Source: Escherichia coli (GTDB lineage: Bacteria > Pseudomonadota > Gammaproteobacteria > Enterobacterales > Enterobacteriaceae). From it: 64,000 nt of DNA. The stretch lies in NCBI RefSeq assembly GCF_003334355.1, contig NZ_QOWP01000009.1; one strand, written 5' to 3'. The position numbers and the translations under genes were made by a program. Numbering within the stretch: position 1 is the first letter of the stretch; each line of letters begins with the position of its first letter. The notes under the pieces are model-generated. The model ran no database searches. It was not told the origin of the DNA and saw nothing but the letters and a program-made list of their open reading frames with translations. Shown in pieces: positions 15,107 through 63,320 of this stretch.

Positions 15107-16603
15107 ATGGCGAAAGAAAAAAAACGTGGCTTTTTTTCCTGGCTGGGCTTTGGTCAAAAAGAGCAGACCCCGGAAAAAGAGACAGAAGTTCAGAATGAAC
15201 AATCGGTTGTAGAAGAAATCGTTCAGGTGCAAGAGCCTGCGAAGGCTTCTGAACAAGCCGTTGAAGAGCAGCCGCAGGCGCATACTGAAGCCGAGGCGGA
15301 AACTTTTGCTGCCGACGTTGTGGAAGTCACTGAACAGGTTGCTGAAAGTGAAAAAGCGCAGCCTGAAGCGGGAGTCGTTGCACAGCCGGAACCGGTCGTA
15401 GAAGAAACGCCGGAGCCAGTGGCTATCGAACGTGAAGAGCTGCCGTTGCCGGAAGACGTCAACGCCGAAGAGGTTTCGCCAGAAGAGTGGCAGGCTGAAG
15501 CGGAAACCGTAGAGATTGTCGAAGCGGCGGAAGAAGAAGCGGCTAAAGAAGAAATCACCGACGAAGAGCTGGAAGCACAGGCGCTGGCTGCCGAAGCGGC
15601 AGAAGAGGCGGTGATGGTGGTTCCTCCGGCAGAAGAAGAGCAGCCGGTGGAAGAAATCGCTCAGGAGCAGGAAAAACCGACCAAAGAAGGTTTCTTCGCG
15701 CGCCTGAAACGCAGCCTGTTAAAAACCAAAGAAAATCTCGGTTCCGGATTTATCAGCCTGTTCCGCGGTAAAAAAATCGACGATGATCTGTTTGAAGAGC
15801 TGGAAGAACAGCTTTTGATCGCCGATGTGGGCGTGGAAACCACACGTAAAATTATCACCAATCTGACGGAAGGCGCATCCCGCAAGCAGCTTCGTGATGC
15901 CGAGGCGCTCTATGGCCTGCTGAAAGAAGAGATGGGCGAGATTCTGGCGAAAGTCGATGAGCCGCTGAATGTTGAAGGTAAAACGCCGTTCGTGATCCTG
16001 ATGGTGGGCGTCAACGGTGTGGGTAAAACCACGACGATTGGTAAGCTGGCACGTCAGTTTGAGCAGCAGGGTAAATCGGTGATGCTGGCGGCGGGCGATA
16101 CTTTCCGTGCAGCAGCGGTTGAACAGCTTCAGGTCTGGGGTCAGCGCAACAATATTCCGGTGATTGCCCAGCATACCGGTGCGGATTCCGCCTCTGTTAT
16201 CTTCGACGCCATTCAGGCAGCTAAAGCGCGTAATATCGACGTCCTGATTGCCGATACCGCCGGACGCCTGCAGAACAAATCGCACCTGATGGAAGAGTTG
16301 AAGAAAATCGTCCGCGTGATGAAGAAACTCGACGTTGAAGCGCCGCATGAAGTTATGCTGACTATCGATGCCAGCACCGGGCAGAACGCGGTAAGCCAGG
16401 CCAAACTGTTCCATGAAGCCGTTGGTTTAACCGGCATCACGCTAACGAAACTGGACGGCACGGCGAAAGGCGGGGTAATTTTCTCGGTGGCTGACCAGTT
16501 TGGTATCCCTATCCGCTACATTGGTGTCGGCGAACGTATTGAGGATTTGCGTCCGTTTAAGGCGGACGACTTTATAGAGGCACTTTTTGCCCGAGAGGAT
16601 TAA
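15107..16603 (+). CDS. ftsY: Signal recognition particle receptor FtsY
   Basis: 498 aa ORF; acidic Glu-rich N-terminal domain followed by SRP GTPase domain (GVNGVGKTTT, DTAGR); first gene of ftsYEX. Confidence 0.95.
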   Translation: MAKEKKRGFFSWLGFGQKEQTPEKETEVQNEQSVVEEIVQVQEPAKASEQAVEEQPQAHTEAEAETFAADVVEVTEQVAESEKAQPEAGVVAQPEPVVEETPEPVAIEREELPLPEDVNAEEVSPEEWQAEAETVEIVEAAEEEAAKEEITDEELEAQALAAEAAEEAVMVVPPAEEEQPVEEIAQEQEKPTKEGFFARLKRSLLKTKENLGSGFISLFRGKKIDDDLFEELEEQLLIADVGVETTRKIITNLTEGASRKQLRDAEALYGLLKEEMGEILAKVDEPLNVEGKTPFVILMVGVNGVGKTTTIGKLARQFEQQGKSVMLAAGDTFRAAAVEQLQVWGQRNNIPVIAQHTGADSASVIFDAIQAAKARNIDVLIADTAGRLQNKSHLMEELKKIVRVMKKLDVEAPHEVMLTIDASTGQNAVSQAKLFHEAVGLTGITLTKLDGTAKGGVIFSVADQFGIPIRYIGVGERIEDLRPFKADDFIEALFARED

Positions 16604-16605
16604 CA

Positions 16606-17274
16606 ATGATTCGCTTTGAACATGTCAGCAAGGCTTATCTCGGTGGGAGACAGGCGCTGCAGGGCGTTACGTTCCATATGCAGCCGGGTGAGATGGCGTT
16701 TCTGACCGGTCATTCCGGCGCAGGGAAAAGTACCCTCCTGAAGCTGATCTGTGGGATTGAGCGGCCCAGCGCCGGGAAAATCTGGTTTAGCGGCCATGAC
16801 ATCACGCGTCTGAAAAACCGTGAAGTTCCGTTTCTGCGCCGCCAGATTGGCATGATTTTCCAGGATCACCATCTACTGATGGACCGTACTGTCTACGATA
16901 ACGTGGCGATCCCGCTGATTATCGCTGGTGCCAGCGGTGACGATATTCGTCGCCGGGTGTCGGCGGCACTGGATAAAGTCGGGCTACTGGACAAAGCGAA
17001 GAACTTCCCTATTCAGCTTTCGGGCGGTGAACAACAGCGTGTTGGCATTGCCCGCGCGGTGGTGAATAAGCCCGCGGTACTGCTGGCGGACGAACCGACT
17101 GGTAACCTGGACGACGCGTTGTCGGAAGGGATTCTACGTCTGTTTGAAGAGTTTAACCGCGTTGGGGTAACCGTATTGATGGCAACGCACGACCTCAACC
17201 TGATTTCACGGCGTTCCTATCGCATGCTCACCCTGAGCGATGGTCACTTGCATGGAGGCGTGGGCCATGAATAA
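16606..17274 (+). CDS. ftsE: Cell division ABC transporter ATP-binding protein FtsE
   Basis: 222 aa ORF; Walker [10 protein letters not shown] and LSGGEQQR signature. Confidence 0.95.
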
Positions 17275-18325
17275 GCGCGATGCAATCAATCATATTCGGC
17301 AGTTTGGCGGGCGTCTGGATCGCTTCCGTAAATCGGTCGGCGGCTCAGGCGATGGCGGTCGTAACGCACCGAAACGCGCGAAATCCTCGCCAAAACCGGT
17401 AAATCGCAAAACCAACGTTTTCAACGAACAGGTGCGCTATGCCTTCCACGGCGCATTGCAGGATCTGAAAAGCAAACCGTTCGCCACATTTTTAACGGTG
17501 ATGGTTATCGCCATCTCCCTGACGCTGCCCAGCGTCTGTTATATGGTGTACAAAAACGTTAACCAGGCGGCGACGCAGTATTATCCGTCACCGCAAATCA
17601 CTGTTTATCTGCAAAAAACGCTGGACGATGACGCTGCTGCGGGCGTGGTGGCACAGTTGCAGGCCGAGCAAGGCGTGGAGAAAGTGAATTATCTTTCTCG
17701 TGAAGACGCGCTGGGCGAGTTCCGTAACTGGTCTGGCTTTGGCGGCGCGCTGGATATGCTAGAAGAAAACCCGCTTCCGGCAGTGGCGGTGGTGATCCCG
17801 AAACTCGATTTTCAGGGGACGGAATCACTCAATACGCTGCGTGATCGTATCACGCAGATTAACGGCATTGACGAAGTGCGGATGGATGACAGCTGGTTTG
17901 CCCGTCTGGCGGCGTTGACTGGGCTGGTCGGGCGCGTTTCGGCGATGATCGGCGTATTGATGGTGGCGGCCGTGTTCCTCGTCATCGGCAACAGCGTACG
18001 TCTGAGCATCTTTGCTCGCCGTGACTCCATTAACGTGCAGAAACTGATTGGTGCGACGGATGGTTTCATCCTGCGCCCGTTCCTGTACGGTGGCGCACTG
18101 CTGGGATTTTCTGGCGCATTGTTGTCACTAATTTTGTCAGAAATTCTGGTACTGCGATTGTCATCGGCGGTTGCGGAAGTGGCACAGGTTTTCGGAACGA
18201 AGTTTGATATCAATGGTTTATCGTTCGATGAATGCCTGCTGTTGCTGCTGGTATGCTCGATGATTGGCTGGGTGGCAGCGTGGCTTGCCACGGTACAACA
18301 TTTACGCCACTTTACGCCTGAATAA
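17267..18325 (+). CDS. ftsX: Cell division ABC transporter permease-like protein FtsX
   Basis: ORF track 17240..18325; start at ATG 17267 ([12 protein letters not shown]...) gives 352 aa, overlapping the ftsE stop by 8 bp. Confidence 0.9.
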
Positions 18326-18449
18326 TAAAAGCGTGTTATACTCTTTCCCTGCAATGGGTTCCGTAGCAGGGAAAGAGACCCCGTTGTCTCTTCCCGGTAT
18401 TTCATCTCTATGTCACATTTTGTGCGTAATTTATTCACAAGCTTGCATT

Positions 18450-18476
18450 GAACTTGTGGATAAAATCACGGTCTGA
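18450..18476 (+). promoter_or_regulatory. SigmaE-type promoter upstream of rpoH (P3-like)
   Basis: GAACTT (18450..18455), 16-nt spacer, TCTGA (18472..18476), matching the sigmaE consensus; about 95 bp upstream of the rpoH start. Confidence 0.65.
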
Positions 18477-18569
18477 TAAAACAGTGAATGATAACCTCGT
18501 TGCTCTTAAGCTCTGGCACAGTTGTTGCTACCACTGAAGCGCCAGAAGATATCGATTGAGAGGATTTGA

Positions 18570-19424
18570 ATGACTGACAAAATGCAAAGTTTAGCTTTAG
18601 CCCCAGTTGGCAACCTGGATTCCTACATCCGGGCAGCTAACGCGTGGCCGATGTTGTCGGCTGACGAGGAGCGGGCGCTGGCTGAAAAGCTGCATTACCA
18701 TGGCGATCTGGAAGCAGCTAAAACGCTGATCCTGTCTCACCTGCGGTTTGTTGTTCATATTGCTCGTAATTATGCGGGCTATGGCCTGCCACAGGCGGAT
18801 TTGATTCAGGAAGGTAACATCGGCCTGATGAAAGCAGTGCGCCGTTTTAACCCGGAAGTGGGTGTGCGCCTGGTCTCCTTCGCCGTTCACTGGATCAAAG
18901 CAGAGATCCACGAATACGTCCTGCGTAACTGGCGTATCGTCAAAGTTGCGACCACCAAAGCGCAGCGCAAACTGTTCTTCAACCTGCGTAAAACCAAGCA
19001 GCGTCTGGGCTGGTTTAACCAGGATGAAGTCGAAATGGTGGCCCGTGAACTGGGCGTAACCAGCAAAGACGTTCGTGAGATGGAATCACGTATGGCGGCA
19101 CAGGACATGACCTTTGACCTGTCTTCCGACGACGATTCCGACAGCCAGCCGATGGCACCGGTGCTCTATCTGCAGGATAAATCATCTAACTTTGCCGACG
19201 GCATCGAAGATGATAACTGGGAAGAGCAGGCGGCAAACCGTCTGACCGACGCGATGCAGGGTCTGGACGAACGCAGCCAGGACATCATCCGTGCGCGCTG
19301 GCTGGACGAAGACAACAAGTCCACGTTGCAGGAACTGGCTGACCGTTACGGTGTTTCCGCTGAACGTGTGCGCCAACTGGAAAAGAACGCGATGAAAAAA
19401 TTGCGTGCTGCTATAGAAGCGTAA
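18570..19424 (+). CDS. rpoH: RNA polymerase heat-shock sigma factor sigma-32
   Basis: 284 aa ORF with sigma-70 family regions ([37 protein letters not shown]); follows ftsX. Confidence 0.96.
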
Positions 19425-19444
19425 TTTCCGCTATTAAGCAGAGA

Positions 19445-19477
19445 ACCCTGGATGAGAGTCCGGGGTTTTTGTTTTTT
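19445..19477 (+). terminator. Rho-independent terminator of rpoH
   Basis: Imperfect hairpin ACCCTGGA..TCCGGGGT followed by TTTTTGTTTTTT, 20 bp after the rpoH stop. Confidence 0.65.
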
Positions 19478-19694
19478 GGGCCTCTACAATAATCAATTCC
19501 CCCTCCGGCAAAACGTCAATCCCCACGCAGATTGTTAATAAACTGTCAAAATAGCTATTCCAATATCATAAAAATGGGGTATGTTTTAGCAGAGTATGCT
19601 GCTAAAGCACGGGTAGTCATGCATAAAACGAAATAAAGTGCTGAATCACAACACCACAACACACGTAATAACCAGAAGAATGGGGATTCTCAGG

Positions 19695-20798
19695 ATGAAT
19701 ATAAAGGGTAAAGCGTTACTGGCAGGATGTATCGCGCTGGCATTCAGCAATATGGCTCTGGCAGAAGATATTAAAGTCGCGGTCGTGGGCGCAATGTCCG
19801 GTCCGGTTGCGCAGTACGGTGACCAGGAGTTTACCGGCGCAGAGCAGGCGGTTGCGGATATCAACGCTAAAGGCGGCATTAAAGGCAACAAACTGCAAAT
19901 CGTAAAATATGACGATGCCTGTGACCCGAAACAGGCGGTTGCGGTGGCGAACAAAGTCGTTAACGACGGCATTAAATATGTGATTGGTCACCTCTGTTCT
20001 TCATCAACGCAGCCTGCGTCTGATATCTACGAAGACGAAGGCATTTTAATGATCACCCCAGCGGCAACCGCGCCGGAGCTGACCGCCCGTGGCTATCAGC
20101 TGATCCTGCGCACCACCGGCCTGGACTCCGACCAGGGGCCGACGGCGGCGAAATATATTCTTGAGAAAGTGAAACCGCAGCGTATTGCTATCGTTCACGA
20201 CAAACAGCAATACGGCGAAGGTCTGGCACGAGCGGTGCAGGACGGCCTGAAGAAAGGCAATGCTAACGTGGTGTTCTTTGATGGTATCACCGCCGGGGAA
20301 AAAGATTTCTCAACGCTGGTGGCGCGTCTGAAAAAAGAGAATATCGACTTCGTTTACTACGGCGGTTATCACCCGGAAATGGGGCAAATCCTGCGTCAGG
20401 CACGCGCGGCAGGGTTGAAAACTCAGTTTATGGGGCCGGAAGGCGTGGCTAACGTCTCGCTGTCTAACATTGCGGGCGAATCAGCGGAAGGGCTGCTGGT
20501 GACCAAGCCGAAGAACTACGATCAGGTTCCGGCGAACAAACCCATTGTTGACGCCATCAAAGCGAAAAAACAGGACCCAAGTGGCGCGTTCGTCTGGACC
20601 ACCTACGCCGCGCTGCAATCTTTGCAGGCGGGCCTGAATCAGTCTGACGATCCGGCTGAGATCGCCAAATACCTGAAAGCGAACTCGGTTGATACCGTGA
20701 TGGGTCCGCTGACGTGGGATGAGAAAGGTGATCTGAAAGGCTTTGAGTTCGGTGTGTTTGACTGGCACGCCAACGGCACAGCGACCGATGCGAAGTAA
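19695..20798 (+). CDS. livJ: Leu/Ile/Val-binding periplasmic protein LivJ
   Basis: ORF track 19638..20798; start at ATG 19695 ([23 protein letters not shown] signal peptide) gives 367 aa; paralog of livK. Confidence 0.93.
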
Positions 20799-60831: not shown

Positions 60832-61590
60832 ATGAAACAAACACAACGTCACAACGGTATTATCGAACTGGTTAAACAGCAGGGTTATGTCAGTACCGAA
60901 GAGCTGGTAGAGCATTTCTCCGTCAGCCCGCAGACTATTCGCCGCGACCTCAATGAGCTGGCGGAGCAAAACCTGATCCTGCGCCATCATGGCGGTGCGG
61001 CGCTGCCTTCCAGTTCGGTTAACACGCCGTGGCACGATCGCAAGGCCACCCAGACCGAAGAAAAAGAGCGCATCGCCCGCAAAGTGGCGGAGCAAATCCC
61101 CAATGGCTCGACGCTGTTTATCGATATCGGCACCACGCCGGAAGCGGTAGCGCACGCACTGCTCAATCACAGCAATTTGCGCATTGTCACCAACAATCTC
61201 AACGTTGCTAACACGTTGATGGTAAAAGAAGATTTTCGCATCATTCTCGCCGGTGGCGAATTACGCAGCCGCGATGGCGGGATCATTGGCGAAGCGACGC
61301 TCGATTTTATCTCCCAGTTCCGCCTTGATTTCGGCATTCTGGGGATAAGCGGCATCGATAGCGACGGCTCGCTGCTGGAGTTCGATTACCACGAAGTTCG
61401 CACCAAACGCGCCATTATTGAGAACTCGCGCCACGTTATGCTGGTTGTCGATCACTCGAAATTTGGCCGTAACGCGATGGTCAATATGGGCAGCATCAGC
61501 ATGGTAGATGCCGTCTACACCGACGCCCAGCCGCCAGTAAGCGTGATGCAGGTGCTGACGGACCACCATATTCAACTGGAGCTGTGCTGA
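60832..61590 (+). CDS. glpR: Glycerol-3-phosphate regulon repressor GlpR (DeoR family)
   Basis: 252 aa ORF with N-terminal DeoR HTH (ELVEHFSVSPQTIRRDLNEL). Confidence 0.93.
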   Translation: MKQTQRHNGIIELVKQQGYVSTEELVEHFSVSPQTIRRDLNELAEQNLILRHHGGAALPSSSVNTPWHDRKATQTEEKERIARKVAEQIPNGSTLFIDIGTTPEAVAHALLNHSNLRIVTNNLNVANTLMVKEDFRIILAGGELRSRDGGIIGEATLDFISQFRLDFGILGISGIDSDGSLLEFDYHEVRTKRAIIENSRHVMLVVDHSKFGRNAMVNMGSISMVDAVYTDAQPPVSVMQVLTDHHIQLELC

Positions 61591-63170
61591 TCCTGCAATG
61601 CTTCCCAGGTCAGACCAAAACGCGCCAGGTATTTGCGTAGCCGATCCGCGTCATTGACGCTGGCTTTGCCCTGGCGCGAAACATCAAAAAGCTGTCGTCC
61701 GGCAGCAGAAAGCGACTTTGCCTGGCGGCAGATAGCGATAACGTGTTCCAGTTGCATACGGTCGAAGAGATCGATGTTTTCTGCCTCTGCGCCCAGCAGT
61801 TGCGTAAGCGCGGAGGGACGGCTCTCCTGCCAGTTATAGCGCAGACGGTTTATCTCATCTTCAACCACGTCCAGAGTGATGCGTCCGCTAGTGGCAAAGG
61901 TTGCCATCCGCGTGACGCTGGCAGAAAGCTCGCGAAAGTTACCGCGCCATGTCGCCTGAGGAGATGTTGCAAAGGCCAGCCAGGCACGCCGCGCTTCGGT
62001 GTTAAAACGCACGCTGTCGCCGGTGAGTGAGGCGTGGCGCTCCACTTCATAATCCAGGTTAGGTTCAATATCTTCCTGGCGCTGGCGTAGCCCCGGCAGG
62101 GTGAAGGTCCAGAGATTGATCCGCGCGTACAGATCTTCGCGGAATTTGCCTTCGGCAACCAGCTGGCGCAAATCGCGCACCGTTCCGGCGATAAGCTGAA
62201 AATCACTGCTCACCTGGCGATCGCTGCCAAACGGGTAAAAGGTTTTCTCTTCAATGGCTTTTAGCAGCATTGCTTGTTCGTCTGCGCCCAGTTCGCCAAT
62301 CTCATCAAGAAACAACATTCCGCCGTTGGCGCTGCGTAATAAACCTTCACGAGATTCCCGCGCCCCGGTAAACGCGCCTTTTACATGACCAAACAGCGTC
62401 GACATGGCGGTATCGCCGCGCAGGGTGGCGCAGTTCACTTCCACAAACGCGCCGCTAAACTGACGCCGCGCCTGTTTTAACTCGAAGATGCGTCGCGCCA
62501 GAAATGACTTGCCCGCGCCGGTTGGACCGTTAAGCAGAATCGGCGCGCGGGATTTGATCGCCACTTTTTCGATCTGCTCAATCATGCGGTTGAAGTGGGG
62601 GTTACGCGTGGCAATGCCGGACTTAAGAAAATCAAGCGTTTGCTGGCGTTCCTCGGCAAAGCGGCTGGCGATGGCGTTATAACGGCTTAAATCGAGATCG
62701 ATAATCGTCACTTCACCTGCGCCGCGCGGCTGTTCTTTTTTGCGCGGAGGTGAAGATTGTATCAGCCGGGCGGGCAGGTAACGCGCTTCCGCCAGCAGAA
62801 ACCAGCAAATCTGCGCGACGTGGGTGCCGGTGGTAATGTGAATTAAATAGTCTTCTTTTTCTGGCTGAAACTCGTAACCACGGGCGAAATCATGCAGGCA
62901 AGCGTAAACCTCTTCGAAATCCCACGGGTTATGCAGTTCAATCTCAACGCTCACCACTTCTGTTTCTGGCGAAACGCTGGCGATATCGCGTTTAAGCGTT
63001 TCAAATAGCGAGCGCGAGCGGGCGTCATGCAATAATTCCAGTCGATCGATGACCAACGATTCTTGCTGGCATAAACAGAGTGTCGGAAGCCATTTCGACC
63101 AGCGCTGACTGCCGCGCCCGGCATAATCCAGCACGGTACCGACAAAGCCAAAAGCCACTGTTTTACGCAT
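61572..63170 (-). CDS. rtcR: Sigma54-dependent transcriptional activator RtcR
   Basis: 532 aa ORF with AAA+ bEBP core (GPTGAGKS Walker A, GAFTGA sigma54-contact motif); divergent from rtcB. Confidence 0.93.
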
Positions 63171-63304: not shown

Positions 63305-63320
63305 TGGCACGACGGTTGCA
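63305..63320 (+). promoter_or_regulatory. Sigma54 (-24/-12) promoter of rtcB
   Basis: TGGCAC-N5-TTGCA (TGGCACGACGGTTGCA), a perfect match to the sigma54 consensus, about 40 bp upstream of the rtcB start and adjacent to divergent rtcR. Confidence 0.85.

Follow-up and report, generated by a model that had tools for sequence, protein, structure and literature searches.

The sigmaE-type motif in the ftsX-rpoH spacer of an Escherichia coli genome is almost certainly the known rpoH promoter P3

The rpoH regulatory region described here sits between ftsX and rpoH, in the same orientation as both, within a 64-kb stretch of Escherichia coli DNA that we refer to as the window. The gene order, all on the plus strand, is FtsY (15107-16603), FtsE (16606-17274), FtsX (to 18325), RpoH (18570-19424) and LivJ (from 19638). 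The segment 18326-18569, which a preliminary description had taken for the rpoH upstream region, coincides exactly with the ftsX-rpoH intergenic spacer, and the ORF downstream of it is that of RpoH. The features of the spacer and its downstream gene are as follows:

18326-18569, plus strand: ftsX-rpoH spacer of 244 bp, between the ftsX stop, which ends at 18325, and the rpoH ATG at 18570.
18334..18342, plus strand: extended -10 element TGtTATACT, candidate distal sigma70 promoter P1.
18341-18377, plus strand: stable hairpin with a 12-bp stem (-26.7 kcal/mol, z -4.0, from folding).
18449..18455, plus strand: P3 -35 element TGAACTT (consensus GGAACTT), agreeing at 6/7 positions and retaining the AAC core.
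18455..18463, minus strand: perfect DnaA box TTATCCACA, located within the P3 spacer; the window has no other match free of mismatches.
18455..18470, plus strand: CRP-like site TGTGGATAAAATCACG, matching 8/10 of TGTGA-N6-TCACA and overlapping the P3 spacer.
18456-18471, plus strand: P3 spacer, 16 nt.
18472..18476, plus strand: P3 -10 element TCTGA, for a consensus of TCAAA/TCNAA; the CGG before it agrees with the extended consensus (T/C)GGTC.
18483, plus strand: predicted P3 start, an A lying 6 nt after the -10 element and 87 nt before the ATG (position 3600870 of NC_000913.3).
18514-18529, plus strand: sigma54-type promoter TGGCAC-N5-TTGCT (TGGCACAGTTGTTGCT; GG-N10-GC) between P3 and the ATG.
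18558..18572, plus strand: Shine-Dalgarno sequence GAGAGGA with the rpoH ATG (18570), read from the sequence.
18570..19424, plus strand: rpoH coding sequence (sigma32, 284 aa).

Comparison with E. coli K-12 MG1655 (NC_000913.3) shows the spacer to be identical base for base, the MG1655 coordinate being 3600783 + (18570 - window position). A 401-nt query over the spacer matched 5426 of 5426 complete E. coli genomes, with an identity of at least 99% in 5405, and in every E. coli genome matched the annotation around the spacer reads ftsX then rpoH. The window thus comes from one more E. coli genome with the K-12 allele of the ftsX-rpoH spacer. The Shine-Dalgarno and start codon block, TTGAGAGGATTTGAATG, is kept across Enterobacterales in the alignment. 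At the borders of the locus, the mechanically called ftsX ORF starts at 17240 (361 aa, window 17240-18325) and the 352-aa ftsX annotated in MG1655 would begin at 17267, sharing its first bases with the end of ftsE, a mere matter of start-codon choice; 17 nt past the rpoH stop, a hairpin followed by a T-run (19441-19480; GAGAACCCTGGATGAGAGTCCGGGGTTTTTGTTTTTTGGG) has the look of the expected rpoH terminator.

Sequence reading and a pattern search both place GAACTT at 18450-18455 and TCTGA at 18472-18476 of the plus strand, separated by the 16 nt from 18456 to 18471. The motif GAACTT-N16-TCTGA is therefore present at 18450..18476 just as first described, and a search of both strands returns it as the single match in the 64-kb window. 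In 100 dinucleotide-preserving shuffles of the window, the same pattern occurred in 4, corresponding to an expectation of 0.04 matches per 64 kb, which scales to about 1e-4 for one strand of the 244-bp spacer. A relaxed sigmaE pattern (GGAACTT with at most one mismatch, a spacer of 15-17 nt and TCN[A/G]A) again finds this site as its only match in the window.

The proposed fit to the sigmaE consensus is borne out by the published model of Rhodius et al., with which both boxes and the 16-nt spacer agree (PMC1312014). Derived from 28 mapped starts, that model consists of a -35 element GGAACTTTT and a -10 element (T/C)GGTCAAAA, a spacer strongly preferred at 16 nt within a range of 15-19, a discriminator of 5 or 6 nt, a purine start and an A/T-rich upstream region, and the same work counts sigma32 (b3461) in the conserved core sigmaE regulon (PMC1312014). 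Written with its flanks against the model, P3 reads tGAACTTgt at the -35 and CGGTCtgAt at the -10, where TCTGA shows two departures from the TCAAA consensus and retains the C that is invariant at the second position of sigmaE -10 elements (PMC1851643). The 30 nt 5' of the P3 -35 element are 67% A+T, as against 48% for the window. Given the discriminator length and purine rule of the model (PMC1312014), and with the MicA +1 lying 6 nt after its own TCTGA, we place the predicted P3 transcription start at A18483.

As the papers describing rpoH P3 print no sequence, the identity of the boxes was cross-checked through the micA promoter, which is reported to share 85% (-35) and 100% (-10) identity with rpoH P3 (PMC1851643). 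In MG1655, the micA promoter reads TGAACTC-N16-TCTGA, with the annotated MicA +1 located 6 nt downstream, and comparison with the window boxes yields 6/7 (86%) to TGAACTT and 5/5 to TCTGA. The TGAACTT and TCTGA elements reproduce the published identities, so that the boxes found here are the P3 of the literature; from this cross-check and the spacing rules, an inconsistency between them and the mapped P3 start appears very unlikely.

The experimental record on that promoter is extensive. rpoH P3 is exclusively transcribed by sigmaE (PMC1851643); E-sigmaE transcribes it in vitro from a plasmid carrying the isolated promoter, induction is seen in vivo, and the Bordetella SigE holoenzyme also transcribes it in vitro (PMC3490749). 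DksA/TraR activates rpoH P3 (PMC9239242), and rpoHP3::lacZ is a standard, widely used sigmaE reporter. As relayed by the papers that cite them, the sources for the K-12 promoter are Erickson et al. 1987, Erickson and Gross 1989, Wang and Kaguni 1989 and Rouviere et al. 1995. The multi-promoter control of rpoH invoked at the outset is likewise supported, and the K-12-identical spacer carries the known sigmaE-dependent P3.

Conservation around the motif was followed from E. coli outward. Over 18448-18560, 5417 of 5426 E. coli genomes are at least 99% identical; no variation in the P3 -35 element is seen among the E. coli alleles sampled, and in the -10 element only one isolate varies. A common allele, present in some 9-10% of complete genomes, has GCG for AGC at 18440-18442, just 5' of the -35 element, and T for G at 18470, two bases ahead of the -10 element, leaving both boxes intact; T at 18470 is also the state in Citrobacter and Enterobacter. 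The exceptional isolate (NZ_OZ038590.1, locus L084) has C in place of T at 18472, where the P3 -10 element begins (TCTGA to CCTGA); this could be a natural P3 down-mutation or a sequencing error. In Citrobacter and Enterobacter the block GGAACTTGTGGATAAAATCACtGTCTGATAAAAG is kept, with a -35 element of GGAACTT and the -10 element preserved; in Citrobacter werkmanii and an Enterobacter species it reads GGAACTTGTGGATAAAATCACTGTCTGATAAAAG, almost unchanged, while the flanks on both sides drift.

For a wider view, 80 rpoH loci sampled across Gamma- and Betaproteobacteria were surveyed with the relaxed sigmaE pattern. A sigmaE-type motif lies on the coding strand 80-205 nt upstream of rpoH in 22 of the 80 loci and on the opposite strand of the same regions in none (0/80), as against a background elsewhere in the loci of 6 matches per 528 kb, or 0.005 per region, which predicts about 0.4 loci. 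The spacers of the distant sites are unrelated in sequence and hold no DnaA box, so the recurring part is the sigmaE boxes themselves. The simple relaxed pattern found no match upstream of rpoH in Photorhabdus, Pantoea symbionts, Vibrio or Pseudomonas, and in Photorhabdus and the Pantoea symbionts, the more distant Enterobacterales sampled, the aligned position holds no clean motif. In many non-enteric gamma- and betaproteobacterial loci (L028, L050, L054, L064, L072 and others), the -10 element about 100-200 nt upstream of rpoH takes the form (TTA)GCACTC[C/T/A]AA, an extended -10 context unlike the enterobacterial CGGTCTGA.

Within the P3 block itself, the evidence for sigmaE recognition has to be weighed against other signals that share its DNA. 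The perfect DnaA box of the P3 spacer is kept in Citrobacter and Enterobacter, and a one-mismatch box, TTATTCACA, lies at 18431-18439. DnaA is listed among rpoH regulators, and Wang and Kaguni reportedly described, in 1989, a repression of P3/P4 by DnaA. For the CRP consensus the window shows no enrichment, its 15 matches falling short of the 23 expected, and the CRP-like site is therefore supported by its position and the literature, not by statistics. CRP and CytR control rpoH (PMC3454398, PMC9032294) through a cassette conserved in close E. coli relatives (PMC3454398), and the site at 18455-18470 may be where this control is exerted. By eye, TTGTGG (18454-18459)-N17-TAAAAC (18477-18482) can furthermore be read as a candidate sigma70 promoter overlapping P3. 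A simple sigma70 consensus scan detected no promoter inside the ftsX-rpoH spacer; its one match nearby, at 18556-18583, overlaps the start codon and was set aside as being at chance level.

Since these 27 bp also accommodate the DnaA box, the CRP-like site and, probably, sigma70 elements, conservation of the block is not attributable to sigmaE recognition alone. GAACTT-N16-TCTGA could accordingly be a chance match in a block kept for its DnaA box, CRP/CytR sites and sigma70 P4/P5, a reading favored by the perfect DnaA box and CRP-like site within the P3 spacer, by the plausible sigma70 pair and by a whole-window expectation of 0.04 that is small yet not negligible. We nevertheless consider it very improbable. 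SigmaE-dependent transcription has been observed in vivo and in vitro from the identical K-12 sequence (PMC3490749, PMC1851643), and according to this literature both E-sigmaE transcription in vitro and its loss upon mutation of the -10 C are reported for K-12. In addition, the -35 and -10 elements are invariant though they fall outside the DnaA box core, and the same type of motif recurs upstream of rpoH in the 22 of 80 distant genomes, with unrelated spacers, no DnaA box and no opposite-strand counterpart.

We therefore conclude that GAACTT-N16-TCTGA is almost certainly the known sigmaE promoter P3 of rpoH in its known multi-promoter setting. Observed here are the sequence itself, its single occurrence in the window, its K-12 identity and its conservation, and the sigmaE dependence is taken from the literature on the identical sequence.

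That the spacer would hold sigma54-like and other promoters within its 240 bp had been no more than a guess; it holds, for a sigma54 consensus lies at 18514-18529 and a conserved extended -10 element at 18334-18342. The sigma54 consensus has two matches in the window, where the pattern search leads one to expect 0.14. The match at 18514-18529 we take to be the published rpoH sigma54 promoter, known as P6. In E. coli, gSELEX with the sigma54 holoenzyme yields a peak between rpoH and ftsX (PMC8743547). In Salmonella, ChIP-chip shows sigma54 bound at the counterpart TGGCACGGTTGTTGCTCG, and Janaszak et al. 2007 is the source given there for the E. coli rpoH sigma54 promoter (PMC3844500). The element is present in Citrobacter, and among the sampled loci outside Enterobacteriaceae no sigma54 motif lies upstream of rpoH but for one probable chance match (L075). 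One locus (L089; NZ_CP090611.1, isolate DCE7) has, after 18529, 9 bp duplicated in tandem (TTGCTACCA) around the -12 element of the sigma54 promoter, and in the rpoH leader, a few bases further downstream, G in place of A. The second match in the window, TGGCACGACGGTTGCA (63305-63320, plus strand), lies just past the start of a 532-aa ORF (61572-63170, minus strand) and faces away from it; gene order leads us to assume that this ORF is RtcR, and the match is presumably that of the known sigma54 promoter of rtcBA. In Salmonella, the counterpart of TGGCACGACGGTTGCA, TGGCACGCTGGTTGCAAT, is bound by sigma54 (PMC3844500).

At the distal end of the spacer, the extended -10 element at 18334-18342 is kept as TGnTATAAT in Citrobacter, Enterobacter and Acerihabitans. 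It fits the distal promoter P1, for which it is a candidate. The hairpin at 18341-18377, whose 5' end lies 16 nt past the ftsX stop, shares sequence with the P1 extended -10 and start region; in Citrobacter and Enterobacter the stem is kept and the loop varies, with no double compensatory changes or covariation across the three sequences compared. This hairpin may be a terminator or 3' stabilizer of ftsYEX. When folding begins at 18349, a second hairpin that overlaps the first is seen at 18369-18395. The full hairpin might then form only in ftsYEX read-through transcripts, and P1 transcripts, lacking part of its 5' arm, would fold 18369-18395 instead, the leader thereby distinguishing the two mRNAs; we regard this reading as unlikely. 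If it were true, the hairpin could end or stabilize the ftsYEX transcript and leave the P1 mRNA intact, and the idea may already stand in the older literature, perhaps as an ftsX terminator.

The 87-nt P3 leader shows no unusual structure in folding (z +1.26), and Rfam searched at a permissive threshold gives no match over 18000-19700, which together argue for control at the P3 step being transcriptional; the known rpoH thermosensor, as relayed by a paper citing Morita 1999, lies inside the coding region. It is scarcely credible that P3, as a sigmaE promoter, mainly yields a short leader-derived RNA or regulatory transcript ending before the ATG rather than rpoH mRNA, given this ordinary leader, the lack of an Rfam family in that interval, the absence of any terminator-like site between 18483 and 18570 and the downstream expression reported by rpoHP3::lacZ fusions.

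Under envelope stress, the anti-sigma factor RseA is degraded by proteolysis, which frees sigmaE. At the rpoH locus, the sigmaE holoenzyme would bind GGAACTT through sigma region 4 and TCNAA through region 2 across the 16-nt spacer, and would initiate about 6 nt downstream of the -10 element, at the predicted A18483, to give an 87-nt leader. P3 firing would raise rpoH mRNA and hence sigma32, and envelope stress and extreme heat would in this way be coupled to the cytoplasmic sigma32 regulon. P3 would act as one among several promoters in the 244-bp spacer, alongside the distal P1, the sigma70 promoters P4 and P5, which would overlap it or lie just downstream, and the sigma54 promoter at 18514-18529. 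As the P3 spacer contains a DnaA box together with a CRP-like site, DnaA and CRP could compete with polymerase or modulate it there, roles that we infer from this overlap.

rpoH P3 matters as the link through which envelope stress and extreme heat, once sensed by way of sigmaE, raise sigma32, the heat-shock factor of the cytoplasm. The finding itself is already known and nothing new was found: it shows that a real alternative-sigma promoter can be recognized from sequence alone, without new biology, and the only added value is the small survey of sigmaE-type motif recurrence upstream of gamma- and betaproteobacterial rpoH.

Among the closest known systems are the SigmaE/AlgU/SigE-type (ECF02) promoters of rpoH homologues in other proteobacteria, such as that of Bordetella bronchiseptica fam, which SigE transcribes in vitro (PMC3490749): like P3, these carry GGAACTT-N16/17-TCNAA in co-oriented upstream position, but their spacers are unrelated, their -10 element is often TCCAA or TCTAA after GCAC, and they lack the enterobacterial DnaA, CRP and sigma54 elements. 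The micA promoter is another, sharing with P3 the -10 element TCTGA, the 16-nt spacer and the -35 element at 6/7 positions; it differs in its product, a small RNA where P3 serves a sigma factor gene, in having a spacer without a DnaA or CRP site and in a -35 element that ends in C. Compared with E. coli K-12 rpoH P3, finally, there is no difference: the entire ftsX-rpoH spacer is identical and the flanking genes are the same.
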